Of a stretch of 64,000 bases of DNA, positions 5,667 to 55,343 are shown one piece after another. Source of the DNA: Chloroflexota bacterium (GTDB lineage: Bacteria; Chloroflexota; Anaerolineae; UBA1429). Every line of letters begins with the position of its first letter. Positions within the stretch are counted from its first letter, which is position 1. The notes below the pieces were generated by a model. The model worked only from the letters and a program-made list of their open reading frames with translations. It was not told the origin of the DNA and did no database searches. A program made the position numbers and the translations under genes. The stretch is taken from contig JAYENT010000043.1 in NCBI GenBank assembly GCA_034722245.1, positions 93 to 64,092 on the forward strand. Reading direction: 5' to 3'.

Positions 5667-6566
5667 GTGGATGAGTATGCGGAGATCGTTCGTCCCCTCG
5701 TAGAGCTGGAGCCCCAGTTCGAGTTCTTTGTGGGAATCGACTCGGACGGTTGTGTTTTCGATACCATGGAGATCAAGCACAAAGAGTGTTTCATTCCCAA
5801 TATCATCAAGCATTGGGGCTTGCAGCCCATCTCCAAGTACGCACGGGAGGCGGCGGAATTTGTCAACCTCTACTCCAAATGGCGAGGGATAAACAGGTGG
5901 CCCGCGCTACTGAAGGTCTTTGAGCTGTTACGGGAGCGTCCAGAGGTGCAAAGGCGGCAGGCCACGATTCCTGACACGCCTCAAATTGAGGCGTTTGTCG
6001 CCTCGGATAGGCCTAAGAGCAACGATTCCCTGACTGAGTTGGTGGCAGAGACGCAGGATCCAGAGCTGATCAAGGCCCTGCGTTGGAGTGAGGCCGTCAA
6101 TGCCACCATCGCCGATATGGTGCATGGCGTGGCTCCGTTTCCCTATGCACGGGAGAGCATCGAGTTGATCTCGCGCTCTGCTGATGCCATCGTGGTCTCA
6201 CAGACGCCTGTAGAAGCCCTGGTCCGTGAGTGGAAGGAGCACGACATAAACGAGTATGTAGAGGTGATCGCGGGCCAGGAAATGGGCACCAAGGCTGAGC
6301 ATCTTCGCTTGGCGTCCGAGGGCAAGTACACGCCCGAACACAAGCTGATGATCGGCGATGCCCCTGGCGATCTGGCGGCCGCTCGGGCCAACGAGGCTTT
6401 CTTCTTCCCTGTGAATCCGGGGCACGAAGAGGAGAGTTGGCAACGTTTCTACGAGGAAGCCTTTGCGCAGTTTATTGCTGGAACCTATGGAGGGCAGTAC
6501 GAGGCCGCGCTGATCTCGGACTTTGAAAAGGCCTTACCTGAGACGCCCCCCTGGAAGAGGAGATAG
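5667..6566 (+). CDS. HAD superfamily hydrolase (phosphatase-like)
   Basis: DxD motif in FVGIDSDGCVFDT and a late GDAPGD motif. The GTG at 5667 lies 9 nt after AGGAGG. The track start at 5562 sits upstream of the predicted transcription start. Confidence 0.6.
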   Translation: MDEYAEIVRPLVELEPQFEFFVGIDSDGCVFDTMEIKHKECFIPNIIKHWGLQPISKYAREAAEFVNLYSKWRGINRWPALLKVFELLRERPEVQRRQATIPDTPQIEAFVASDRPKSNDSLTELVAETQDPELIKALRWSEAVNATIADMVHGVAPFPYARESIELISRSADAIVVSQTPVEALVREWKEHDINEYVEVIAGQEMGTKAEHLRLASEGKYTPEHKLMIGDAPGDLAAARANEAFFFPVNPGHEEESWQRFYEEAFAQFIAGTYGGQYEAALISDFEKALPETPPWKRR

Positions 6567-9365: not shown

Positions 9366-12161
9366 ATGCCCAGGGAAGCGCCCCAGTCTGAACCCCTTGA
9401 CCTGAATATCCTGCCAGAAAAGTACAGGCCTCAGGCTATCCCTCCCATCATCGTGATGCTTGGCGTCACGGCAGTGGTCTTTCTCCTTCTGGCCGTGGTA
9501 TCCTTTGTCCTGTTGCACCGCAACCGGGCCTCAATGGCGGAACTGAGCCACGACCTAGAGGTAGCGCAGAGCACGCTGCAGGCTCTACGTACGCCACCTC
9601 CCACTGTCATGGCGCTGAGGCAGGAGTTGAGCAGGACGCAACAAGCCCTGGAGGTGATACGGGAAGTGTATCCGACGATGGCGGCTGGCCGTCGGGATTG
9701 GGGGGGAATCTTTGAGGCCATTCTCTCCTACGATGGCGAAAGAATGCGCCTTACCGAGCTCTACCAGGATGGGTTGTATCTTACGCTTGCCGGGGTTGCT
9801 CTGAGTCGCGAGGACATCCTGACGTATGCGAGAAGGCTGGAGCATGCTGACGTTTTTGAGGAGGTCATGGTCGAGTCCTTGGAGGGTTCGGATAGACCCA
9901 TAGAGCCAGCTACCCCCACGCCGTCCCTGACCGCCACGGCTACACCTGCAACGCCGACAGCGACGCCTACGGCTGTGCGTTACGACAAGTATGAAGTGGA
10001 TGATTTTATCCCCAGCCCTATTGCCTTGGGGGAAGTGCAGTGGCATAACTTTAATCCCGTGCGCGATATGGACCAGATGTTCTTCACAGCCAAAGGCGGG
10101 AGGCGATATTGCGTTGAGGCCATCCCCCAGGTTGCGGGCGTGGATACGTTGCTTCAGGTGAGCGTGGGCGGTGTGGGATACGTGAACGACGATTGTGTCT
10201 CCCGGCAGGGCGAGTATCTGACGTGCGAGTGTCCTGTAAGCACCATGACGGGCAGCCTGGCCTCTCTCGTGGAGTTCCAGATTCCCGAGCAGGAGGAGGA
10301 CCAGCGCGTGGTGATCAAGGTGACCAACAACGGCCAGTATGGCCCCAGTATGTGGTACGTGGTGCGCGTTTACCAGGCCGAGGTTAGTGACTTCTACGAG
10401 AATGATGACGCTTCGCCCAGACCCATTGCCGTTGGGGAGACGCAGCACCGTGCCTTTTATCCCACGGGGGACGTCGATCGCGTTCAGTTCCCCGTCAAGG
10501 CGGATCGCACATATCGGCTACAGACGGCCAACCTGGCGGTGGGGGTTGACACGGTCCTTTCCGTTTTCGTCGGCGATCAAGGCTATTCCAGCGACGATGT
10601 GAGCCTCGATGATCTTTCCTCTCTTGTAGAATTTCGCCCCCGGACCGACGGCGTAGCCAGCGCGCTGATCACCAACAAGGGAGAGTTCGGCCCGCACATG
10701 ACCTACGATATCACTCTGAGCCAGGCGGGGGGCGATGCCTATGAGCCTGATGACCTCGTTCCCAGTCTTATATCGCCTGGGGAGCAGCAACGCCGCACCT
10801 TTTTCCCGGAGAATGACATAGACCGCGTAGAGTTTAACGTGAAGGCGGGGCGGATATATGAACTCAGGACCTACAGTCTGACGGTGGGGGTGGATACGGT
10901 CTTGACTGTGCTGTTCGGGGGCGTCTCTTATACGGACGACGACGTGGGTCCCGGAGATCGTTCCTCACGCGTGGTGTTCAAAGCGCCGGCTGATGGTCAA
11001 GCCGGTGTCACCGTCAGGAATCGGGAACGGTTCGGCCCCGATATGGTCTACTGGCTTACATTAAATGAGCTCTCGGCCACGCCCACACCCACTGGTACCC
11101 CCGAGCCCGGTTGCGAGGATATCTATGAGCCGGATGACGTGGTGCCCCGGCTCATGGCTGTCGGCGAAGAGCAGAACCACACCTTCTGTCCACAGGGTGA
11201 CGTGGATCGTGCCGTGTTTACAGCCAAGGCAGGCTACGCCTATGAAGTGGAGACAGATGACTTGTCCTTGGGTGTCGATACGTACATTTCGGTGCAGATC
11301 GGGGATGTCACCCTGACCAACGACGATCGCGCTCCCCAGGAATTGAGCTCCAGGGTGCAGATATCTAATATCTTGGATACAGATTTGCCCGCTTTCGTCA
11401 CTATCAGGAATAAGGGCCTTTTTGGTTTTGATTCCTCGGGCAATACGCGAGGATATACGCTGAGAGTCAAGAATGTGAATCTGAGCGAGGGCGACGATTT
11501 TGAGCCCGACATGGAGGTCAAGCGATACCTCTCGGTGAACGAGGTGCAGCGCCACACCTTTTCCCCAGATGGAGACATGGACCGCTTGTACCTGCGTGTC
11601 AAGGCGGGACGTAAGTACGTCGTAGCGACCTGTGGTTCAGAGCTCTCCTCGTCCGTTTCAGCTGTGGATACGGGCATTATAACGGGGTGTGAAAAGCTTT
11701 TGCCGGGCGTCGACAGCGTCTTGGTGGTGGCGGGGCCCGTTCGCAACTGCTATCCGCAGAGTTGCCAGAGCGATGATGCCTGGCCAGGGACGGGGTACCT
11801 GAACTCCCGCGTCACTTTCGAGGCCCAGACGGACGGCGAGGTTACGGTTACCATTTACAATAAGGGCCTGTTCGGCCCGGATAGGGAATATTATGTGTTT
11901 GTTTGGGAGGTCGCGGCTGCCACGCCGACCAGTTCGCCCACCCTTGCGCCTTCCGTATCACCCACGCCTACGTTGACGCCACCGCCTTATCCTCTCTCTT
12001 CGCGGAGCAGTTTACCCGCAGCGCGCAGTGAAAAGGGTATGGTTTGGGATTTCTCGCTACTCTCCCCGCGTTCGCTGCCTAAACTGGCCCTGCAAGCAGC
12101 CGATGGAGATGGGAATGTGGAGTTTGTGCTTGTTCTAAAGATGCGGTCTGTACAACAATGA
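9366..12161 (+). CDS. PilN-like type IV pilus assembly protein fused to five PPC-like (pre-peptidase C-terminal) domains
   Basis: The N-terminus has LNILPEKYR, one TM helix and a PilN-type region. Pro/Thr linkers and five divergent modules follow. Confidence 0.7.
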   Translation: MPREAPQSEPLDLNILPEKYRPQAIPPIIVMLGVTAVVFLLLAVVSFVLLHRNRASMAELSHDLEVAQSTLQALRTPPPTVMALRQELSRTQQALEVIREVYPTMAAGRRDWGGIFEAILSYDGERMRLTELYQDGLYLTLAGVALSREDILTYARRLEHADVFEEVMVESLEGSDRPIEPATPTPSLTATATPATPTATPTAVRYDKYEVDDFIPSPIALGEVQWHNFNPVRDMDQMFFTAKGGRRYCVEAIPQVAGVDTLLQVSVGGVGYVNDDCVSRQGEYLTCECPVSTMTGSLASLVEFQIPEQEEDQRVVIKVTNNGQYGPSMWYVVRVYQAEVSDFYENDDASPRPIAVGETQHRAFYPTGDVDRVQFPVKADRTYRLQTANLAVGVDTVLSVFVGDQGYSSDDVSLDDLSSLVEFRPRTDGVASALITNKGEFGPHMTYDITLSQAGGDAYEPDDLVPSLISPGEQQRRTFFPENDIDRVEFNVKAGRIYELRTYSLTVGVDTVLTVLFGGVSYTDDDVGPGDRSSRVVFKAPADGQAGVTVRNRERFGPDMVYWLTLNELSATPTPTGTPEPGCEDIYEPDDVVPRLMAVGEEQNHTFCPQGDVDRAVFTAKAGYAYEVETDDLSLGVDTYISVQIGDVTLTNDDRAPQELSSRVQISNILDTDLPAFVTIRNKGLFGFDSSGNTRGYTLRVKNVNLSEGDDFEPDMEVKRYLSVNEVQRHTFSPDGDMDRLYLRVKAGRKYVVATCGSELSSSVSAVDTGIITGCEKLLPGVDSVLVVAGPVRNCYPQSCQSDDAWPGTGYLNSRVTFEAQTDGEVTVTIYNKGLFGPDREYYVFVWEVAAATPTSSPTLAPSVSPTPTLTPPPYPLSSRSSLPAARSEKGMVWDFSLLSPRSLPKLALQAADGDGNVEFVLVLKMRSVQQ
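9981..11912 (+). repeat. Five tandem, divergent protein-level modules (PPC-like) inside the pilN-like gene
   Basis: Module boundaries are roughly 9981-10379, 10392-10727, 10737-11069, 11121-11477 and 11496-11912. Each begins [YF]E[PNV]DD (variant FEPDME in the fifth) and shares GD[VIM]DR..F.VKAG..Y, GVDT.L, DD and FGP.M.Y. Confidence 0.7.
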
Positions 12162-13267
12162 ATATGGACATTGGAGAAGTGGCTGGGCATCTCGAGGTCA
12201 AGAATTCTATCAGTATTGGTATTGTGGCCGGATTGATCGCGTCCATGGTGCTCTTTGGTGTGGCTTTGACCTCTTTGATAAGTGCCAGACAAGAGCGGGC
12301 TGTGTTTGAAGGGGCGTATGAATCCACTATCTCCTCCATCGAGCATATTCGCGCGGCGCAGCAGAGTCCGGAGGCGCTACGTCAGCGCATCGCGGAGGCT
12401 GAAGGGGATTTGGAGGCCTTACTGGCGACTGTGCCGACGCGAAGAGAAGTCCGTGCGGAAATCGTAAGATACTATACGTACGCGAGTAACGTGGACGCTG
12501 AGCTTGTGCGTATAGGCAAGGTAGCCACGAGTTCCAAGGAGAAAGTGGAGGGGATCTACGAGAGGCAGCGTTTTCTCCTGGAAGCGCAGGGGATGCCAGA
12601 TAATTTGATGCGCTTTCTTGCTCGTGTGGGAAGTGGGCCTTACAGCACTTTCATTCTTGCTAACATACGGATAAGGCCCAATGGGCCGGCGACGGCCGAC
12701 GCCGATCTGGAGGTCTTTTCCTCGGAGCTCTCTGGGGTTGCGTCCCCGTTCGCACCCTCCGCGGTGCGCATGTCCTCAAAGGAGGGGAACTTGGGGCTAG
12801 AAGACGAGGCGGTAGTGGCGTTGAGCGACGATCTTCAGGAAGCCATCATCGCAGGACGTTGGGAGGATGTCGTGTCGCTGGGTGAGAGATTCCTGGGACT
12901 GGGCATGGGTTCTGAGGACGTCAAAGCCGCCATATATCAAGGCTATGTGAGGGTGGGATACGATCTCTTGTCCCAGGGTGCGTTTGCAGAGGCCGGGGAG
13001 CATTTCCAGAGGGCGCTGGATATCGTGCCGCACGGCCAGGAAGCACAGGAAGGTCTGGAGGCTTTGGGGGGCGTGGGAGGAACGGAAGAGGGGGATCCCG
13101 GCAGTGATATGCTGTCTGATTCCAAGGTGCACGTCGTGCGCCGGGGCGAGTCGCTCTCGGTTCTCGCGCAACGTTACAATACGACGGTTCAGGAGATCAT
13201 GGAATTGAACGATCTGCATCGCACCACCATCTATGTCGGTCAGCAAATCCTTGTGCCTGCACGCTGA
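12158..13267 (+). CDS. PilO-like membrane protein fused to a TPR-like region and a C-terminal LysM domain
   Basis: TM helix, coiled coil and an alpha/beta region reminiscent of PilO. The C-terminal LysM reads HVVRRGESLSVLAQRYNTTVQEIMELNDL. Its ATG overlaps the upstream stop codon (ATGA). Confidence 0.55.
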   Translation: MNMDIGEVAGHLEVKNSISIGIVAGLIASMVLFGVALTSLISARQERAVFEGAYESTISSIEHIRAAQQSPEALRQRIAEAEGDLEALLATVPTRREVRAEIVRYYTYASNVDAELVRIGKVATSSKEKVEGIYERQRFLLEAQGMPDNLMRFLARVGSGPYSTFILANIRIRPNGPATADADLEVFSSELSGVASPFAPSAVRMSSKEGNLGLEDEAVVALSDDLQEAIIAGRWEDVVSLGERFLGLGMGSEDVKAAIYQGYVRVGYDLLSQGAFAEAGEHFQRALDIVPHGQEAQEGLEALGGVGGTEEGDPGSDMLSDSKVHVVRRGESLSVLAQRYNTTVQEIMELNDLHRTTIYVGQQILVPAR

Positions 13268-13276
13268 GGGAATACT

Positions 13277-14542
13277 ATGAGGTCGCATCTGTGGTCGTTG
13301 CGGGAGGTGGGGCTAGTGAGGGCGAAAAAGAGGCTCTTTTGTTTGTTGTTGGTGTTTCTTGTCACGGCGGGCGCTACCGTACCTCAATGTGCGGCGGCGC
13401 GCGCGCGCCCTGTCGAGGAGCCTGCTTCCCGGGTTGGGAGCTATGGGGTGGAGGGAACGCCTCCCCCCTCTTCTTACCTACTGCGGGCGCAACAGGCGGA
13501 TGCAACACCCACGCTCACAGAGGAAGAGAGATTGCAGGAACTCGTCGAGGAACTGGACGCTGCTTGGGATGCGCTCGACTGGGAGGAGGTACTGCGCCTC
13601 ATAGACGAGATCATGGCCATTGACCCTGACTATGAAGATATAGAAGAGAGAAAATACGATGCCCATATAGGCTATGGCTATCAGTTGTTCACTGAGGGGG
13701 ACTGTTCCGGTGCTTTGGAACAATTTCGCGCGGCGCTGGAGTTGGAGCCAGAGGGAGAGGAGGCCCTGTCGGGATTGGAACTTTTGGAGCGTTACTGTGC
13801 TACTCCCCTCCCTCCGACCGCCACGCCCACCGCGGGCCCCACGTTGGCGCCGACAGGAACGCCTCAGGCCATCACCTCCCCCATCACCTATACAGTGCAG
13901 CCCGGAGACACCCTCTATAGCCTGGCGAAGCGATATGATACCACGGTGCAGGCCATCATGCAGGCAAACGGTATGATGAGTTACCTGATATATGTGGACG
14001 AGGTGATCTGGATTCCGCCCAGTGGTGCGGCTCCCCCCGGCCCCATTGTGCACATCGTGCAGCCGGGGGAGACGCTCTATTCCATAGCGCAGCAGTACGG
14101 AACCACCGTCTGGGCCATTAGGATGGCCAATAATCTCCCGGGATATACTATTTGGGCCTATAGAGCCCTATTCATTCCCACCACCGCCCAGCCCGGCGCC
14201 ATCATACATATTGTACAGCCGGGAGAGACTCTCTATTCCATCGCCAATCGATACGACACGACGGTTCCTCTGCTCATGATGGCGAACGGCCTTCGCACTT
14301 ATGAGATCCGTGTCTATCAGCGGCTGTTGATTCCCTCGGAGGATTGGGCTACCTGGCCGCCTGCTTGGCTTCCGGGACATCCTGTCACGCCACCGTACGG
14401 TCCCGCCACATACGTAGTGAAGCGGGGAGATACGCTGTACAGCATAGCGCGGCGTTTCGGGACCACGGTGGAGGCCCTCATGGCGGCAAATGGCCTATCC
14501 AGTTCTCGTATCCTGGCGGGCATGCGGCTGCGGATACCATAA
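13277..14542 (+). CDS. Secreted TPR-like protein with four LysM peptidoglycan-binding domains
   Basis: Signal-peptide-like N-terminus and a Pro/Thr linker. Four LysM units: YTVQPGDTLYSLAKRY, HIVQPGETLYSIAQQY, HIVQPGETLYSIANRY and YVVKRGDTLYSIARRF. Confidence 0.75.
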   Translation: MRSHLWSLREVGLVRAKKRLFCLLLVFLVTAGATVPQCAAARARPVEEPASRVGSYGVEGTPPPSSYLLRAQQADATPTLTEEERLQELVEELDAAWDALDWEEVLRLIDEIMAIDPDYEDIEERKYDAHIGYGYQLFTEGDCSGALEQFRAALELEPEGEEALSGLELLERYCATPLPPTATPTAGPTLAPTGTPQAITSPITYTVQPGDTLYSLAKRYDTTVQAIMQANGMMSYLIYVDEVIWIPPSGAAPPGPIVHIVQPGETLYSIAQQYGTTVWAIRMANNLPGYTIWAYRALFIPTTAQPGAIIHIVQPGETLYSIANRYDTTVPLLMMANGLRTYEIRVYQRLLIPSEDWATWPPAWLPGHPVTPPYGPATYVVKRGDTLYSIARRFGTTVEALMAANGLSSSRILAGMRLRIP

Positions 14543-22424: not shown

Positions 22425-23468
22425 GTGTCGGAAGTGCGTGTGGCTAAGGAAGTGTTACAGGATTTCACCGAGAAGCTCTTCGTCCAGATGGGTATGCCAC
22501 CTGAGGATGCGAGGATCGAAGCGCAAGTTCTGGTGTGGGCGAACTTGAGGGGGATCGATTCCCATGGGGTGCTCAGGGTTCCTCAGTATCTAGCCAGCGT
22601 GGAAAAGGGGGGTATGAACCCCACGCCTGATATCCAGGTGCTGAAAGAGACGCCAGCCGTGATTTTTGTCGATGGCGATCACGCGTTTGGCCCCGTGGTG
22701 ACGACCTTTACCATGGAGCGGGTGATGGAAAAAGCCAGAGAAGTGGGTGTTGGCTGGGGGCTCATTCGCAATACGACGCATCAAGGAGCCATGGGGTACT
22801 ATGCTCTGATGGCCGCTGAGGAGGGTATGGCCGGGATCGCCCTCGTGAGCAACCCTCCCAATATGGCGCCTTATGGTGCCAAGGCCGCTGGCGTACATAA
22901 TAGCCCCATAGCCATTAGCGTGCCCGCCAAGGAGCATCGGCCGTTGGTTCTGGACATGGCCACAAGTGTCGCTGCTGGCGGCAAGGTCAATCTGGCCGTT
23001 GATAAAGGCGTGCCCATTCCCGAGGGATGGGCCCTGGACGCAGACGGAAATCCCACCACCGATCCCAAAGAGGCGGGCATCCTCTTGCCCTTTGGCGCTT
23101 ACAAGGGCTCCAATCTGGCCATCATGTTTGCTTGTCTGTCAAATATCATGGCCGGCAACCCGCTGGTGGCCCCCACCTTGGCAGGGGAACAGATCAGGCC
23201 GGGCACGCAGAACAGCGTGGTGGCAGCCGTGGATATCGGTACCTTCAGCGATCTGCAGACGTTCGAGGAGAACGTGGACGATCTCATAGACGGGATCAAG
23301 TCCTTGCCCAAGGCCGAGGGCTTTGAGGAGATCCTGGTGCCCGGCGAACTCGAGGATCGCGTTCACGCGAAGCGGGTGAAGCAAGGCATCCCCTTGCCCG
23401 ACGGAACCGTCCGAAACCTACGAGAGGCCGCCGAGAAGCTGGGTGTAGAGATACCACAGGGACTGTAG
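22425..23468 (+). CDS. Ldh_2 family (malate/L-lactate/sulfolactate dehydrogenase type 2) oxidoreductase
   Basis: GIDSHGVLRVPQY, HQGAMGYY and a GGKVNLA-type region. GTG start after GGGAGG. Confidence 0.8.
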   Translation: MSEVRVAKEVLQDFTEKLFVQMGMPPEDARIEAQVLVWANLRGIDSHGVLRVPQYLASVEKGGMNPTPDIQVLKETPAVIFVDGDHAFGPVVTTFTMERVMEKAREVGVGWGLIRNTTHQGAMGYYALMAAEEGMAGIALVSNPPNMAPYGAKAAGVHNSPIAISVPAKEHRPLVLDMATSVAAGGKVNLAVDKGVPIPEGWALDADGNPTTDPKEAGILLPFGAYKGSNLAIMFACLSNIMAGNPLVAPTLAGEQIRPGTQNSVVAAVDIGTFSDLQTFEENVDDLIDGIKSLPKAEGFEEILVPGELEDRVHAKRVKQGIPLPDGTVRNLREAAEKLGVEIPQGL

Positions 23469-23498: not shown

Positions 23499-23527
23499 GG
23501 CCGCTATGGTTCCATAGCGGCCTTTTG
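23499..23527. terminator. Bidirectional terminator between convergent Ldh_2 and GH-like genes
   Basis: GGCCGCTATGG-TT-CCATAGCGGCC followed by TTTT. Confidence 0.65.
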
Positions 23528-23562: not shown

Positions 23563-24549
23563 CTAGATTCGCAAGCGATTGAGCCGCAGTTCGTGGGAGC
23601 CATCGGGGCGGCAGAATTCATAGTAGAGATAGAGCTCCCCATCGAGCGCGATGGCGTCGACGTAGCGTAGGCCGCCGCTGCCATAGGGGGACACGATACT
23701 GGGCCCCTGTTGGCTGAGGCGATAAAAGTGGGTCAGATCCCACGATTGGACCATGCCCGTGCGCTCCTCGTAATTCTCCTCCACAGAGGCGGCCCCGTCA
23801 TAGTATCCCAGCCATCCACTCTCCGTGGGTATCAGACAGCCAAGACGTGCGGCGTAGGCGTCCCAGGCACCCTGGCGTGGAGGGAATATATCCCCCTTCC
23901 ATTCATAGTGTCGGCCATCGCCGCTCACAGCCAGCGCCGTGCTGGAGAGCGTAAGCCCGGTGTTATAGATATCGGCCGTGGCATGCATCTTTTCTCGATC
24001 CTCCGGGGAGGTGATGTCGAGGCTCATAGCGTAACTGATGAGCATGTAGTAGAGGCCATTGACGATCATCACCCAGGGGTCTTTCACGCCCTGTACTCCC
24101 ACCTCTTTGGCGCTGAATAACTCTTGGCACTGGGATAGATCGAAAGCGTCCGGGCTCTCGGCCTCCACGACGTCGATGCGCCAGCGATTGGTCTGCGGAT
24201 CGACATAGCTGGGATACAGCAGCCATTTGCCGTCCAGGCTCTTGGTCAAACTGAAGCGTTCCACGGAGGGTGAATCCAGATCCTCCTTTGTGGCATTCCA
24301 TATATCGTGGAAGGTGACGCCATCATCCGATGCGGCGATGTGGCATTCGCCGCCCCGCACGGGGCGTGGCTTCCGGATGCGGTAGTACAAATAGAATTTC
24401 TTTGTCTCATCATCGTAGAGAACGCTGGGCGCCCCCACCCAGTAGCCACGGCCCTCTCCCGGTGGCTCCTTGATGGTCTGCCCTTGAAGGGGATCGAAAA
24501 CGAGGGGGGCGCCGTAGCATTTGCGCGCCGCTCCAGAGCTGGGCTTCAT
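23563..24549 (-). CDS. Beta-propeller glycoside hydrolase-like protein (GH32/43/68/130 superfamily; family not resolved)
   Basis: Repeated blade-like segments (WVGAPSVLYDDETKKFYLYYR, KDPWVMIVNGLYYML, GWLGYYDG, GELYLYYE). Fold call made by eye only. Confidence 0.45.
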   Translation of the reverse strand: MKPSSGAARKCYGAPLVFDPLQGQTIKEPPGEGRGYWVGAPSVLYDDETKKFYLYYRIRKPRPVRGGECHIAASDDGVTFHDIWNATKEDLDSPSVERFSLTKSLDGKWLLYPSYVDPQTNRWRIDVVEAESPDAFDLSQCQELFSAKEVGVQGVKDPWVMIVNGLYYMLISYAMSLDITSPEDREKMHATADIYNTGLTLSSTALAVSGDGRHYEWKGDIFPPRQGAWDAYAARLGCLIPTESGWLGYYDGAASVEENYEERTGMVQSWDLTHFYRLSQQGPSIVSPYGSGGLRYVDAIALDGELYLYYEFCRPDGSHELRLNRLRI

Positions 24550-44810: not shown

Positions 44811-44861
44811 GTGGAATATGCTACGCATATTCCTTGGGAGAATCGCCTTGCGATTCTCCAC
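44811..44861 (-). repeat. 51-nt twin-hairpin palindromic element, full copy, intergenic
   Basis: GTGGAATATGC-TAC-GCATATTCC-TTG-GGAGAATCGC-CTT-GCGATTCTCC-AC. Reverse complement of the copies at 51696 and 54646. Starts 53 nt upstream of the polA start. Confidence 0.85.
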
Positions 44862-45001
44862 AGAGATTTGTGCTTGGGGCAGGCAGGTGCTATGGATGCC
44901 AACCCATTCCTCATGCGCGCAGCGTGCAATGGCCCACTTCTACTGCTCTTGCCTCGTCTGATCGTTTTGGCAGGCTTCATGTCCCCGGCGCTTCCATCTG
45001 C

Positions 45002-45032
45002 TTGACAGGATGTATCCAAGGATATATATAAT
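45002..45032 (+). promoter_or_regulatory. Sigma-70-like promoter for the Zn-ADH gene
   Basis: TTGACA, 17-nt spacer, TATATA (TATAAT occurs 2 nt further on). Confidence 0.55.
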
Positions 45033-45076
45033 CAGATGCCGTAGAGGGATTGGAATGGCGCTTAGGAGAGGATTTC

Positions 45077-47748: not shown

Positions 47749-48264
47749 TCAACTCTCTTTGGTATAGTAGTCTGGTTCATAGCGCAGGGCTTTGCCAGAT
47801 AGGGGGCACACTTCCACGCAAAGTGGCCCCTCTTCCCGTTCGTTGCAGAGGTCGCACTTGATGGCCAGCCTCTTATGCGGATGCCTTTTAGGTATGTCCC
47901 AAGGGCATGCATCCCGGCACTGCATGCAGCCCACGCAGAGCTCCTCATCTATGATCACCGCACCGGTGCGCGCATCGCGTGACATGGCGTCAAGGGGACA
48001 GGCCTCGATACATGGGGCCTCCTCACATTGGGAGCAGATGGTCGCCGAGATGGGATCGGTTTCCTTGAACTCGTCGAAGTGGATATTGATACGGGCCATG
48101 GAAGCGCCGGCTTTCCCCTCGTGGTATATAGAGCACGCAATCTCGCAGACCTTGCATGTACGACACGATTGGGGATCAAAGATGATTCGTCCCCTGGCGA
48201 TCGATCCGACGGCATCGGATTCTACAGAGCCTCGTTGCTTGCTATTGGGATATTCTGTCATCAT
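47749..48264 (-). CDS. 4Fe-4S ferredoxin-type protein, DmsB/NrfC-like with four cluster motifs
   Basis: CRTCKVCEIAC, CSQCEEAPCIEACP, CVGCMQCRDACP and CDLCNEREEGPLCVEVCP. Confidence 0.8.
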   Translation of the reverse strand: MMTEYPNSKQRGSVESDAVGSIARGRIIFDPQSCRTCKVCEIACSIYHEGKAGASMARINIHFDEFKETDPISATICSQCEEAPCIEACPLDAMSRDARTGAVIIDEELCVGCMQCRDACPWDIPKRHPHKRLAIKCDLCNEREEGPLCVEVCPLSGKALRYEPDYYTKES

Positions 48265-48289
48265 CCTCTCTTTTCATAAAGGGCTGTCC

Positions 48290-48317
48290 GTGGGAGAATC
48301 GCAAAGCGATTCTCCAC
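48290..48317 (+). repeat. Solo half-element (GGAGAATCGC-AAA-GCGATTCTCC hairpin only), intergenic
   Basis: GTGGGAGAATCGCAAAGCGATTCTCCAC lies between the ferredoxin start and the GNAT stop. Confidence 0.75.
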
Positions 48318-48321
48318 TTAC

Positions 48322-49458
48322 TCAAACGGCTTTGCTATAAACCTGCCAGCGCTTGTATATGCGCGCTCCCAAGCGCTGCGCCAGTCTTGGCGTCATGGGA
48401 TTATCAGCCCCCGTGATGGACATGTCCAGCCAGCGATAGCCCTTGGCCAGGGCGCGTTGACACATCTCGTGGAGCATAAGAGCCGCCACGCCGCGTCCCC
48501 AGTACCAGGGAAGGACGAGGATGCTCTTGATGCAGAGACACTCGGGGCGTCTGCGCATGGCGCACCAGGCCCGAAGCTTGTCCCAGGGATACCGCAACCC
48601 GTTGGCGTGTATTAGGACCTCGTTAAAGTTGGGTAGCCCGAGCAAAAAGCCCACCTCGCGGCCGTCTATTGTGCCGAAAAGCACCAATTCGGGATCAATG
48701 ATCTCCTCTATACCCCTTGCCAGGGACTCCAGTCTGTCGCGATCCCATGCCACGTGATCGGGGAGTACCCTTAAGGTCTGGTTGAGCAGATGCACCACGC
48801 GGCTCACTTCGCCGTCCCAGTCGTCCGCATCCGCACCGCGAACGGACGCTCGCCCACGCTCGCGTACCTTGTTAGCCACACGGTGGAGTTTGGCTGCTGG
48901 GCCCTCTGGGTCGGTAGCTGCTTCCAGAGACGCTTCGAAGGCGATGTTTTGCTCTCTGCCAGGCACGAACCCGTAGCGGTCAACGAATTCTCGATAGTAG
49001 GGCGGCGTGTGTCCGCAAAAGAGCGTCGGCGGACGGTCGTACCCCTCGAGGAGGATGCCGTATCCGTCCTCATAGTCAAGGTTGAAAGGACCATAGAGGT
49101 TGTCCAACCCGTGACGGCGGGCCCACGTCGCAGCATGGTCCCACAGGGCGGCGGCGACCTCATACTCCCGAACGTAGTGATTGAAACCGAAGATGCAGTC
49201 GCGGCCCCCCAGTTGCTGGTTCCGTGCATCATCTTTGGCGCAGCAGATCGTCCCCACAGGCTGGTTCCCTTCCCAGGCGATGAAAAGCTCTGCCGTGGCG
49301 TGTTGGAACCACGGGCCGTGCTCAGGATCCAGGCGCTTGTCCCACTCGCTGAGTATGGGGGGGACCCACAGCGGGTCGCCACGAAAGACGCGCCAGGCAA
49401 AGGTCAGGAAAAGTCGACGCTCCCGCGGCGTATTGACTGGTCGAACCGCCAAAGGCAT
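48322..49458 (-). CDS. GNAT family N-acetyltransferase (large, about 378 aa)
   Basis: Acetyl-CoA loop-like WYWGRGVAALM near the C-terminus. Overall GNAT-type call made by eye. Confidence 0.55.
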   Translation of the reverse strand: MPLAVRPVNTPRERRLFLTFAWRVFRGDPLWVPPILSEWDKRLDPEHGPWFQHATAELFIAWEGNQPVGTICCAKDDARNQQLGGRDCIFGFNHYVREYEVAAALWDHAATWARRHGLDNLYGPFNLDYEDGYGILLEGYDRPPTLFCGHTPPYYREFVDRYGFVPGREQNIAFEASLEAATDPEGPAAKLHRVANKVRERGRASVRGADADDWDGEVSRVVHLLNQTLRVLPDHVAWDRDRLESLARGIEEIIDPELVLFGTIDGREVGFLLGLPNFNEVLIHANGLRYPWDKLRAWCAMRRRPECLCIKSILVLPWYWGRGVAALMLHEMCQRALAKGYRWLDMSITGADNPMTPRLAQRLGARIYKRWQVYSKAV

Positions 49459-50990: not shown

Positions 50991-52004
50991 ATGAAAAAAT
51001 CGTGTCTGTTTCAGGTTTTTCTATTCGCCGTTCTTGTCTTCGTGGCGACTATGTTTCTGCGTGGCTACATCAGGGGCTGTCGCGGCTCACAGGAAGATGC
51101 GGCGGTCGTCGGCCGTCGCGTTGGGGGCTCGGTTTCCTCGCAGGACGGGCAAGGAGAGGACGCCGATGAATCAAGAGCCAGGGGAACGGGCATAGAGGGC
51201 CTTTCCTCGCTTCCGGTCAGTAGTCTTATGATTGATGCGGCCCGGGTGCGGGGCCTGGCGGTCAGCGAACGCTTCTTTTTTGTTTCATCCTTCGATCCCA
51301 ATCGGCGTGTGGGCTATTTGTACAAAATCGACCGTGAAAGTCGCGGCGTGGCCCAAATTCGTACAGTGAAAGAGGATGGGCGATATCAACTGGGGGGACT
51401 CTATGTCAGCGCTGATTCCCTGCTGGTCCCCCTGGCCGGTGACGAGACCGATCCCGTTAGCTCCATCCTCACCTTGGATACCCGCTACTTGGAGATTCAA
51501 GATGCGTTCAGCGTCGGTTGTCGTATACAGGCTGTGGCTCGGGGGGCAGATGGTTTGATCTATGGCTATAGTCCCGATGCGAGCGTTTTCTATGCCTGGA
51601 CGCCCACTGGAGAGGAGGTGCGCAAAAGGACAATCTATACCGAGGCGGAATACCATGATGTGGAGTTTTTGCAGGGCAGCCTCGTCTGTGCGGGGGTGGA
51701 GAATCGCAAAGCGACTCTCCCAGGGAATATGCGTAGTATATTCCACGTGGACGGGCAAGGCGGGGTCATAGACGTCATCGATCCCCAGACTTTCACTTTG
51801 CTCGTTCGCCACCGGTGCTACACCCGCACGCCGGACCAGCAGTGGGTCACCAGCCGGGGGTTCGCCTTCTTCGACGGCATGTTCTACTTTGTGCCCGACG
51901 AAGGCCACTTTCCTACATTAATGACGTATGTGCTGGACGGGGTCACCCTTTCCGAGTACGTTCCCAGCGTGGGTCAGGGAGTCGAGTCTCTGGGAGTTCA
52001 GTGA
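50991..52004 (+). CDS. Hypothetical membrane-anchored protein, possibly beta-propeller; carries an in-frame 51-nt palindromic element
   Basis: ATG after GGGAGGGGGGAGAGAG, and an N-terminal TM helix (LFQVFLFAVLVFVATMFL). No family recognised. Confidence 0.5.
   Translation: MKKSCLFQVFLFAVLVFVATMFLRGYIRGCRGSQEDAAVVGRRVGGSVSSQDGQGEDADESRARGTGIEGLSSLPVSSLMIDAARVRGLAVSERFFFVSSFDPNRRVGYLYKIDRESRGVAQIRTVKEDGRYQLGGLYVSADSLLVPLAGDETDPVSSILTLDTRYLEIQDAFSVGCRIQAVARGADGLIYGYSPDASVFYAWTPTGEEVRKRTIYTEAEYHDVEFLQGSLVCAGVENRKATLPGNMRSIFHVDGQGGVIDVIDPQTFTLLVRHRCYTRTPDQQWVTSRGFAFFDGMFYFVPDEGHFPTLMTYVLDGVTLSEYVPSVGQGVESLGVQ
51696..51746 (+). repeat. 51-nt twin-hairpin palindromic element, full copy, in-frame inside the hypothetical CDS
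   Basis: GT-GGAGAATCGC-AAA-GCGACTCTCC-CAG-GGAATATGC-GTA-GTATATTCC-AC. Translated as VENRKATLPGNMRSIFH. Confidence 0.85.
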
Positions 52005-53363: not shown

Positions 53364-55343
53364 ATGTCTGCGAGAGAGCTTACGCCCCTGTCGCTGGATA
53401 GAGTAGAGATCAATGGCCCGTTCTGGGGCCACCGGCAGGCCGTCAACCGGGAGGTGACGCTTCGCGCCGAATACCAGCACTGTAAAGAGACGGGGCGCAT
53501 TGACGCCTGGAAGCTGGATTGGGAGCCAGGGATGCCCAACCCGCCGCACCACTTTTGGGATTCCGACGTGGCCAAGTGGCTGGAGGCCGTGGGCTATACC
53601 CTGGCGACGCATCCGGACGAGGAACTGAAAGCACGCGCCGACGAGGTCATTGATATGATCGCTGAGGCACAGCAGGACGATGGCTATCTCAATATTCACT
53701 TCACTACCGTAGAACCCAGGAATCGCTGGGCGAATCTGCGCGACATGCACGAATTATATTGTGCCGGCCACCTGATGGAGGCCGCCGTGGCCTACTATGA
53801 GGGCACGGGAGATCGCCAGTTGCTGGACGTGCTTTGCCGCTACGCCGATTATATCGACTCGGTGTTTGGGCCCGGAGAGGGCCAAAAGCGAGGCTACCCT
53901 GGTCACGAGGAGATCGAACTGGCGCTGGTCAAGCTTTATCGTGCCACAGGCAAGGCCCGCTATCTCGATCTGGCTACGTTCTTCATCGATGAGCGGGGAC
54001 GTCAGCCCCACTATTTTGATATAGAGGCCAGAAGGCGCGGCGAGGGTCCGGGCGACTACCGCTTTGGAACTTACGACTATGCCCAGGCCCATCTGCCCGT
54101 TCGTGAGCAGACCACGGCGGAGGGCCATGCGGTCAGGGCCATGTATCTTTATAGTGGTATGGCCGACGTGGCGGCCGAGACCGGGGATGATAGCCTGCTG
54201 GCCGCCTGCGAACGTCTGTGGGAGAACGTGACGCAGCGCCGTATGTACGTCACCGGCGGCGTCGGTTCGTCCTCTCACGGGGAGCGCTTCACCATCGATT
54301 ACGACCTGCCCAACGATCTGGCCTATGCAGAGACTTGTGCGGCCATCGGCCTCGTATTCTGGGCGCATCGCATGCTGCAGTTTGAGGGCGATGGGAGGTA
54401 CGCTGACGTCATGGAGCGCGCTCTGTACAATGGCGTCCTGAGCGGCGTGTCCCTCAAAGGCGACAAATTCTTTTACGCCAATCCGCTGGAGGCGATTCCC
54501 GCGCTATACGAGGCGCGCCCCGATCTCTTTGGCAGGGATGCCATCTCTTACACGCGACAGGGCTGGTTCAGCTGTGCGTGCTGCCCGCCCAACCTGGCGC
54601 GCCTCATCGCCTCCCTCGGACAATATATCTACTCGGAAAGCGAGGGTGGAGAATCGCAAAGCGATTCTCCCAAGGAATATGCTGCGCATATTCCCGAGGG
54701 GATATACGTGCACCTGTACGTCGGGGGCAGCGGAACCTTTGACGTCGACGGACGGGAGGTTGTCCTCTCCCAGGAGACGCGTTATCCATGGGAAGGTGAG
54801 GTGACGATTACCGTGCAGCCCGAGGCGCGGGTGCGCTTCCCTTTGGCTCTGCGCATACCGGGGTGGAGCCGGGGGGCGACGCTGCAGGTCAACGGCCAAC
54901 CCGTGGACGTGGCGTCACAGTTGGAGCGGGGCTATGTGAAGCTCGAGCGCGTGTGGGAGCCGGGCGACCGCGTCGTGCTCGATCTCCCCATGCCCGTGGA
55001 GCGTGTGGAGGCGCACCCATCGGTTGCTGAGGATTGTGGACGTGTGGCCATCCAAAGGGGCCCCCTCGTCTACTGCCTGGAGCAGGTGGACAATGGTCCC
55101 AACCTGCGCGGTATCGTCCTTCCTGCCGATGCCGAACTGCAGGCGACCTTTAAGGAGGGTCTTCTCGGCGGGGTAGTGGCCATCGAGGGCGAGGCCAAGA
55201 GGCGAGACCGGGGGCAATGGGACAACGCTCTGTATAGGACAGTACCGTCCGCGTCGGAGACAGTGCCCATCAGGGCCATCCCCTACTATGCCTGGGCCAA
55301 CCGAGAGCCTGGTGAGATGCTGGTGTGGATTCGGCAGGGGTAG
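53364..55343 (+). CDS. Glycoside hydrolase family 127 (DUF1680, beta-L-arabinofuranosidase-like)
   Basis: Typical GH127 sequence with the conserved CACCPPN cysteine motif. The ATG at 53364 lies 7 nt after GAGGAGG. Confidence 0.85.
   Translation: MSARELTPLSLDRVEINGPFWGHRQAVNREVTLRAEYQHCKETGRIDAWKLDWEPGMPNPPHHFWDSDVAKWLEAVGYTLATHPDEELKARADEVIDMIAEAQQDDGYLNIHFTTVEPRNRWANLRDMHELYCAGHLMEAAVAYYEGTGDRQLLDVLCRYADYIDSVFGPGEGQKRGYPGHEEIELALVKLYRATGKARYLDLATFFIDERGRQPHYFDIEARRRGEGPGDYRFGTYDYAQAHLPVREQTTAEGHAVRAMYLYSGMADVAAETGDDSLLAACERLWENVTQRRMYVTGGVGSSSHGERFTIDYDLPNDLAYAETCAAIGLVFWAHRMLQFEGDGRYADVMERALYNGVLSGVSLKGDKFFYANPLEAIPALYEARPDLFGRDAISYTRQGWFSCACCPPNLARLIASLGQYIYSESEGGESQSDSPKEYAAHIPEGIYVHLYVGGSGTFDVDGREVVLSQETRYPWEGEVTITVQPEARVRFPLALRIPGWSRGATLQVNGQPVDVASQLERGYVKLERVWEPGDRVVLDLPMPVERVEAHPSVAEDCGRVAIQRGPLVYCLEQVDNGPNLRGIVLPADAELQATFKEGLLGGVVAIEGEAKRRDRGQWDNALYRTVPSASETVPIRAIPYYAWANREPGEMLVWIRQG
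54646..54696 (+). repeat. 51-nt twin-hairpin palindromic element, full copy, in-frame inside the GH127 CDS
   Basis: GT-GGAGAATCGC-AAA-GCGATTCTCC-CAA-GGAATATGC-TGC-GCATATTCC-CG. Contributes GGESQSDSPKEYAAHIP. Confidence 0.85.

Follow-up and report, generated by a model that had tools for sequence, protein, structure and literature searches.

The stretch analysed here (the window) comprises 64,000 nucleotides of contig JAYENT010000043.1, from an uncultured Chloroflexota bacterium of the class Anaerolineae, and contains an intact gene for a β-L-arabinofuranosidase-like enzyme of glycoside hydrolase family 127 (GH127). Within the coding sequence of this gene lies a palindromic element of 51 nt, copy D, one of four related copies in the window (Table 1). 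It begins with GT, followed by a first hairpin (H1), the trinucleotide CAA, a second hairpin (H2) and two further nucleotides; folded as RNA, H1 and H2 together reach −27.1 kcal/mol (z = −3.4 relative to dinucleotide-shuffled sequences). The initial annotation had described a 51-nt palindromic element inserted in frame into a GH127 gene, and this description is confirmed by the two perfect hairpins and by three GH127 Pfam domains in the surrounding gene. Copy D adds the peptide GGESQSDSPKEYAAHIP without a change of frame, as residues 428–444 of the 659-residue protein, and a tblastn comparison places the indel at 54648–54698. Two details of the earlier description have to be amended. The element was said to start 20 codons after the CACCPPN cysteine motif, but it starts 17 codons past the end of the motif and 24 past its start. 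The downstream flank was given as GIYVH, but a glutamate precedes this segment and is the residue that follows the insert (…HIP-EGIYVH).

Table 1. Element copies, their host genes and the GH127 insertion site in the window and in related genomes.
Feature	Location	Strand	Description
GH127 β-L-arabinofuranosidase-like gene	53364–55343	+	659-residue annotated product, intact
Copy D, two-hairpin 51-nt element	54646–54696	+	in frame in GH127; GTGGAGAATCGCAAAGCGATTCTCCCAAGGAATATGCTGCGCATATTCCCG
Copy D, hairpin H1	54648–54670	+	GGAGAATCGC-AAA-GCGATTCTCC; perfect 10-bp stem, 3-nt loop
Copy D, hairpin H2	54674–54694	+	GGAATATGC-TGC-GCATATTCC; perfect 9-bp stem, 3-nt loop
Copy A, full 51-nt element	44811–44861	−	intergenic, with divergent polA and alcohol-dehydrogenase genes on either side; loop 2 GTA
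Copy B, H1-only singleton	48290–48317	−	GT-H1-CAC; immediately behind a GNAT gene's stop codon and upstream of a 4Fe-4S ferredoxin gene
Copy C, full 51-nt element	51696–51746	+	in frame in DUF6454-family gene 50991–52004; loop 2 GTA
GH127 site, window			H1 + H2, +51 nt
GH127 site, L037	11283–11309		84% identity to window; H1 alone, +27 nt: GTGGAGAATCGCATAGCGATTTTCCCA
GH127 site, L038	2328–2354		82% identity to window; H1 alone, +27 nt: ATGGAGAATCGCGGAGCGATTATCCCA
GH127 site, L039			83% identity to window; empty, junction GAGG / CGGGAATAT
PPDK_N/PEP-utilising enzyme gene	L028		in-frame element, in the PPDK_N domain
FGGY kinase gene	L005		in-frame element, in the FGGY_N domain
FmdE-TrmO fusion gene	L027		in-frame element

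The insert in the GH127 enzyme

The open reading frame (ORF) of 664 residues matches the Pfam families PF07944, PF20736 and PF20737 with E-values of 6e-123, 3e-27 and 8e-28, respectively. The catalytic domain spans residues 19–424, the middle domain 451–548 and the C-terminal domain 550–662, and the copy D insert falls precisely between the first two of these. An AlphaFold2 model calculated from 75 sequences has a mean predicted local distance difference test score (pLDDT) of 91.6 and a predicted TM-score (pTM) of 0.93, and it superimposes onto the crystal structure of the Geobacillus enzyme Ara127N (PDB code 4QK0) with TM-scores of 0.92–0.96 and an r.m.s.d. of 1.5 Å. In this model the insert forms a loop that joins two β-strands (residues 423–426 and 446–449), and the only segment of the protein with a pLDDT below 50 (residues 436–441) lies within it. 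The suggestion that the insert would be found in a loop near the domain junction is thus supported by the model, in which a stretch of low confidence connects two strands of an otherwise confident structure. Glu323, Cys325, Cys406 and Cys407, which occupy the columns of the catalytic and zinc residues, are invariant in the alignment, and pairwise comparisons of four genes (from the window and from the related contigs L037, L038 and L039, introduced below) gave ratios of nonsynonymous to synonymous divergence (dN/dS) of 0.10–0.12 at dS values of 0.56–0.88. The expectation that the gene is intact is therefore borne out by the full-length ORF, the low dN/dS values and the invariant catalytic columns. 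The enzyme retains its fold and its catalytic residues and is still under purifying selection, and because of the dN/dS of about 0.1, the invariant columns, the confident model and its match to 4QK0, the insert is regarded as tolerated in a functional enzyme. It is probably a disordered loop in the linker that leads from the catalytic barrel to the first β-sandwich.

The 17 residues had been put forward as a lineage-specific insertion, and comparison with other GH127 proteins agrees with this. In an alignment of the 60 closest of 8000 homologues, about 57 lack the insert, including one that is 83% identical, and it is also missing from the solved GH127 structures 4QJY and 3WKW, with a gap at this position in 4QJY. 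Some of the more distant orthologues (P0051, P0015, P0023, P0032, P0036 and P0048) carry unrelated indels of 2–7 residues at or beside the same loop, and the loop therefore tolerates length change in GH127 generally.

The three closest relatives, L037, L038 and L039, are syntenic contigs of Anaerolineales metagenome-assembled genomes (MAGs), and they reveal palindromic DNA at the same site: one site is empty and two hold H1 only (Table 1). An alignment of the DNA maps these states and that of the window to one phosphodiester bond, and all are multiples of three nucleotides. The H1 inserts of L037 and L038 have one stem mismatch each, in both cases within the same TCT (Ser) codon of the stem, which L037 has changed to TTT (Phe) and L038 to TAT (Tyr), each change giving an aromatic residue and breaking one stem pair. 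This parallel change could be the result of shared ancestry or of selection on the inserted loop at the amino-acid level. Hairpin H2 could either have been gained in the lineage of the window or deleted in the others, the deletion then running between the near-repeats TCCCAAGG and TCCCGAGG.

In copy D the loop of H2 is TGC, read as GCT GCG in the GH127 frame. The claim that the loop-2 variant GTA, present in both other full copies of the window, would read GCG TAG and thus introduce a stop codon is correct. By eye, five of the six frames of the consensus dimer read open, and the GH127 frame is the sixth; H1 is free of stop codons in all six. With the outer GT tag as reference, loop 2 is TAC in copies A and C and in L027 and GTA in L005 and L006, which in the direction from H1 to H2 corresponds to GTA in the former and TAC in the latter, so that both orientations occur in the family. 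The copy in L006 shares the GES frame of copy D, and its TAC loop, which is GTA flipped, contains no stop and differs from TGC by one transition. Given this related stop-free loop, there is no need to assume that three substitutions repaired copy D once it had inserted. Of the two explanations originally offered for the loop variant, survival of stop-free variants only fits better, whereas selection that removed a stop codon after insertion fits less well, repair having been needless in the light of L006. The simplest reading of these sequences is a filter, in which only stop-free loop states can persist in the GH127 frame. The loops of H1 are highly variable (AAA, AAG, TTT, GAA, GGA, TCT, CCT). 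We rejected, as a statistical claim, the notion that the element is "designed" to be open in all frames, as a rough estimate indicates that neither a 23-nt palindrome open in all frames nor a 51-mer open in five of six is rare by chance.

Terminator and promoter calling returned no terminator-like or promoter call at copies C or D, and a role as intrinsic terminator or promoter was discarded for both. Rfam covariance models matched none of the window copies at E ≤ 1, and none of 17 related loci at the gathering score.

Copies elsewhere in the window and in related genomes

The H1 pattern matches the window four times (0.00 expected) and the H2 pattern three times (0.03 expected). These matches make up three head-out heterodimers and one H1 singleton, all located between 44.8 and 54.7 kb. 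The general layout of the family is 5'-GT-H1-CAA-H2-AC-3', a head-out heterodimer of short stem-loops with the outer ends GTGGA...TCCAC. Its members are H1 singletons of 27–28 nt or dimers of 51 nt. Exactly 51 nt is the length of copies A, C and D, which follow this layout with either CAA or CAG between the hairpins, apart from the 3' end of copy D, to which we return below. The tag GTGG is found at the outer end of H1 in all four copies and at that of H2 in copies A and C; the outer end of H2 reads CGGG in copy D and GTAG in L006. Copy A folds with −28.8 kcal/mol (z = −5.5).

Copy C is an exact 17-codon insertion in a conserved gene for a 337-residue protein of the DUF6454 family, whose L037 orthologue matches Pfam PF20055, and it is missing from the syntenic orthologues in L037 and L039. 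It is read as VENRKATLPGNMRSIFH, in another frame than copy D, and has two stem mismatches. When all syntenic genes of L037 and L039 were compared with the window by tblastn, across a syntenic stretch of about 20 kb, the element accounted for all indels of at least 8 residues.

Both intergenic copies adjoin differences in gene content. Beside copy A (region 44811–45050), an aldo-keto reductase gene that stands between polA and the dehydrogenase gene in L037 and L039 is missing from the window, and copy B adjoins an extra GNAT acetyltransferase gene (48322–49458) that is absent from L037 and L039 (region 48264–49458). The elements may be markers of rearrangement points.

A scan of a genome collection located H1 in three Anaerolineales/Anaerolineae MAGs, beside a second, variable hairpin, with at least five copies in loci of the CAZMOW MAG and two in JBKHJO. 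Long ORFs, real genes by Pfam, run through several of the relatives' copies. A gene resembling GH106, an α-L-rhamnosidase family, is present in two MAGs (L006 3–2570 and L025 3136–6303, both on the minus strand) and carries a 51-nt insert at residue 88 in L006 and at residue 753 in L025, each site being empty in the other genome. Three further in-frame copies lie in the enzyme genes of L028, L005 and L027 (Table 1), whereas candidate coding insertions in L033 and L045 proved not to be genuine. In the Anaerolineales clade as a whole, about 8 of 13 copies are intragenic and in frame in Pfam-supported genes. These use all three frames and both orientations, and their length states of +27, +24 and +51 nt are all multiples of three. 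H1 is constant across the copies; the partner hairpins are variable yet have perfect stems (GGAATATGC, GGGATATGC and GAACATGC, each with a matching 3' arm). The idea that in-frame insertion is tolerated beyond GH127 is accordingly supported by the second window copy in the DUF6454 gene and by five copies in real genes of related MAGs, and this is evidence for a general behaviour in the Anaerolineales clade examined. The junction of H1 and H2 gave 0 matches in a metagenome collection, and the window's own lineage is therefore not represented in that collection.

Mobility and relation to known palindromic elements

The element is multi-copy and polymorphic for presence and absence at orthologous sites. 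Taken together, these data make it likely that copy D belongs to a family of small, dispersed palindromes of the kind represented by repetitive extragenic palindromic (REP) sequences and Rickettsia palindromic elements (RPEs), which would spread as selfish DNA. Five insertion junctions could be resolved in all, and the cleanest is that of copy A. In both L037 and L039 this site is empty, with CAAC directly followed by AGAG, and the window has exactly 51 nt more and no target-site duplication, so that this one unambiguous junction fixes the ends of the element. These hairpin ends, the outer GTGG tag, the coexistence of singletons and dimers, the missing duplication at site A and the position of copy B directly after a stop codon argue for mobilisation of the REP type, by a Y1/HUH enzyme. 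In such a scheme, single-stranded hairpin intermediates would probably be handled in trans by a Y1/HUH transposase, either a REP-associated tyrosine transposase (RAYT) or one of the IS200/IS605 type. Copies would survive within genes only if they keep the frame, contain no stop codon and lie in a tolerant loop, and the inserted peptide would most likely be a neutral passenger.

Several observations have to be set against this interpretation. The four window copies all lie inside 10 kb, and their count rests on 64 kb of the host genome. Copy D ends in CG rather than AC. A Y1/HUH ORF was sought in about 560 kb with IS200 TnpA and E. coli RAYT sequences as queries, and nothing was returned below E = 1; the two L007 copies likewise have no RAYT gene between them. 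In the GH127 tree, (win,(L037,(L038,L039))), the empty-site L039 is weakly nested among carriers of H1 (75–79% bootstrap), which would require either that L039 lost H1 precisely or that one site was used repeatedly. The synonymous sites of H1 are identical in three genomes (6/6, compared with 47% gene-wide; P = 0.011), which leaves room for function or for conversion. Finally, not all junctions are as clean as site A. At copy C (51746/51747) the element begins with GTGGA, and the host bases right after the insert are also GTGGA; at L025 the 9-nt sequence ATGGAGAAT is present at both ends, and the empty orthologue reads ATGCAGGAA. Since the host 3' sequence repeats the first 5 and 9 nt of the element, respectively, the boundaries of these two copies are ambiguous by 5–9 nt, and a recombination or duplication mechanism is possible there.

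Such flanks are what would be expected if the element spread without any transposase, with short homologies as sites of recombination or template switching, a copy entering, possibly as a small circle or through copy-choice replication, host sequences that resemble its 5' end RTGGAGAAT. The empty GH127 site of L039, GCGG-GAAT, also resembles this end, and three lineages have an insert at one and the same GH127 bond; together with the repeats at copy C and L025, this likeness allows either a target preference or a recombinational route. We nevertheless regard the latter as an unlikely main route, as site A shows a clean 51-nt insertion without such homology, the homology at L006 site 1 is small, and with only five resolved junctions chance or the target preference of an enzyme may explain the pattern. 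The repeated flanks may also be read as duplications of 5–9 bp and the ends GTGGA...TCCAC as short terminal inverted repeats, which would point to a conventional MITE (miniature inverted-repeat transposable element), derived from an insertion sequence (IS) and moved by a DDE transposase. This is very unlikely. The cleanest site has no duplication, the flank repeats differ in length (5 nt at copy C, 9 nt at L025) and the inverted ends measure only 5 nt; a length of 51 nt is at or under known MITE sizes, the body consists wholly of two independent hairpins, H1 is found alone and with many different partners, and no IS with these ends was seen.

A different possibility is that the hairpins are a selected functional element, either as an mRNA structure that pauses translation where the two domains meet or stabilises the transcript, or through a role of the loop peptide in the enzyme. 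Its position exactly at the border of the Pfam catalytic and middle domains, the perfect stems of copy D despite the synonymous divergence between the genomes (dS 0.7–0.9), the identical synonymous positions of H1 and the replacement of one and the same Ser codon in L037 (by Phe) and L038 (by Tyr) would all be in keeping with this. However, the same element is found in intergenic DNA and at unrelated positions of unrelated genes, including the PPDK_N and FGGY_N domains, and nearly all GH127 orthologues, even one with 83% identity, do without it. The insert is also the least confident part of the model, and about 10% of the 9-codon windows in the GH127 gene are as conserved at synonymous sites as H1, so that we consider a selected function improbable. 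An artefact of assembly or binning, or a dead pseudogene, might be suspected because the window is a metagenomic contig and the exact protein is known from one contig only. We rate this as extremely improbable, given that the independent assemblies L037 and L038 have H1 at the same bond, that every state is a multiple of three, and that the ORF is full-length, with all domains and catalytic residues and a dN/dS of about 0.1. A selfish mobile palindrome of the REP/RPE kind thus accounts best for the evidence.

Hairpin ends, the lack of a target-site duplication and precise excision and insertion are features of IS200/IS605-family transposition and of hairpin-bearing non-autonomous derivatives of that family, which offer a mechanistic analogy; the presence and absence of the element at orthologous sites is consistent with such precise events. 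In contrast to this family, no transposase was found for the element in the roughly 560 kb searched, no conserved target tetranucleotide was established, and there is no internal sequence beyond the hairpins. Other tiny mobile repeats that sometimes lie in ORFs without disrupting them are cyanobacterial MITEs and small dispersed repeats, as well as coding palindromes of Methanocaldococcus and Wolbachia; their sequences and hosts differ from those described here.

The closest parallels are with REP sequences. Families tagged with GTAG or CGTC have been described in head-head, tail-tail and heterodimer arrangements, with spacers down to 1–2 bp (Di Nocera et al. 2013; PMC3733652). The tag is mutated to GTGG in the GTAG-20 family of Opitutus terrae, and GTAG REPs are known in the Chloroflexi from Thermomicrobium roseum (PMC3733652). 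Intragenic REP singletons and dimers occur in several free-living species, for example O. terrae and Thauera; in O. terrae about 70 ORFs contain intragenic REPs, of which singles encode 7–8 residues and dimers about 24 (PMC3733652). The present element resembles the GTAG-17 to GTAG-20 families of O. terrae in its short stem-loops of about 20–25 nt, its 4-nt tag at the outer end in the GTGG variant, its singletons alongside head-head heterodimers spaced by 1–5 bp, and the length of intragenic dimers (about 20–30 residues). Like REPs, for which mobilisation by a RAYT is presumed, it is a short stem-loop with a terminal tag that is present in multiple copies as singletons and dimers. It differs from them in its stem sequence, which has no match in the supplementary tables of PMC3733652 or in the papers, in its Anaerolineales host, in the combination of a constant H1 with a variable partner, in having no RAYT gene in the roughly 560 kb searched, and in being intragenic in about 8 of 13 cases, whereas REPs are mostly extragenic.

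The behaviour of the element had also been likened to that of RPEs, the classic case of in-frame insertion (Ogata et al. 2000; see the summaries in PMC10969869 and PMC3733652). The likeness is valid in that both are palindromic repeats that lie in frame in unrelated housekeeping or metabolic genes, at positions compatible with the fold, and decay after insertion. RPE-1, however, has a length of about 100–150 bp and encodes 30–50 residues, compared with the 51 nt of the element; by their descriptions, RPE-4 and RPE-6 are CGTC-tagged, whereas the element is GTGG-tagged and has no CGTC end; and the hosts of RPEs have reduced, obligate intracellular genomes, in contrast to the free-living-type, glycan-degrading Chloroflexota considered here. 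Such behaviour is not confined to Rickettsia, in view of the intragenic REPs of O. terrae and Thauera and the GTAG REPs of Chloroflexi (PMC3733652). The remark that it had not been described for this kind of organism does agree with our literature search, which returned no description of such elements in Anaerolineales; the literal element sequence gave only unrelated primer matches in the papers. Because intragenic REP dimers and the GTGG tag have already been described (PMC3733652), this is the known phenomenon of selfish palindromes inside genes, here in the Anaerolineales, a new bacterial group.

The Anaerolineales are an abundant, mostly uncultured, glycan-degrading group, and the GH127 gene provides a clear allelic series at a single codon (empty, one hairpin, hairpin pair), in which loops are lengthened in steps of 8–9 residues with the fold unharmed. 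In-frame indels of 27 and 51 nt in Anaerolineales proteins should be checked for hairpins before they are read as adaptive loops, and the constant H1 offers a handle for finding the mobilising enzyme.

The L007 locus deserves separate mention. Here, direct copies of a composite of a GGCAATCAGG hairpin and H1 (195–243 and 985–1034) flank about 750 nt, located upstream of a UvrD/PcrA-type helicase gene, with no convincing ORF and no Rfam match in this stretch. With two copies 790 bp apart and no RAYT-type ORF between them, the locus was rejected as a REPtron. Viral contigs that were scanned contained no H1, and a lone H2-like hairpin in their AT-rich DNA was judged to be due to chance.

H1 in other phyla and further repeats in the window

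Exact copies of H1, with its 10-bp stem, were also encountered in at least two Lachnospiraceae MAGs, with four loci each (L001, L018, L026 and L035; L009, L016, L020 and L031). There, its usual neighbour in intergenic DNA is another conserved module (…AAGAAGTTCTACGG-hairpin-CTTTCTCAC…). Matches to H1 were found in Spirochaetes, Latescibacterota and other loci as well. On Spirochaete-like contigs, about 50 nt separate H1 from a 5S rRNA gene (in L041, H1 at 6257–6279 and the rRNA gene at 6326–6436), and this locus is kept across the assemblies L003, L023, L041, L051, L052 and L069. Where another phylum has H1 in a single copy, the match may be due to chance, hairpins being abundant. Across phyla, a 5' RT tag held in common is only weakly enriched (P = 0.014, uncorrected for orthologous loci), and we do not claim a pan-bacterial tagged family on this basis.

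A more far-reaching proposal would be that H1 (GGAGAATCGC-NNN-GCGATTCTCC) is a mobile hairpin module conserved across phyla and serving as the recognised unit, multi-copy in several Anaerolineales species and in the two or more Lachnospiraceae MAGs. In Anaerolineales it would pair with fast-evolving partners, and the resulting codon-compatible (27 + 24 = 51 nt) and largely stop-free modules would have coding sequence as their main niche and be gained and lost in precise steps. We consider this unlikely. If it were true, H1 modules would be a regular generator of variation in the loop length of proteins in a free-living phylum, for which the empty, H1 and H1 + H2 states of GH127 would serve as an illustration.

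Besides the element copies, the window contains few perfect hairpins, and one of these is an ordinary terminator. It comprises a perfect 10-bp stem and a 4-nt loop (GGCCGCTATG-GTTC-CATAGCGGCC, 23499–23522), followed by TTTTG, and is located between the convergent genes 22425–23468 (plus strand) and 23563–24549 (minus strand). It looks like an intrinsic terminator of the usual kind, unrelated to the element family. Direct repeats of 74 nt at 13115–14469, five copies in total, correspond to LysM domains, one at the end of gene 12158–13267 and four in gene 13277–14542, and are ordinary protein-domain repeats.

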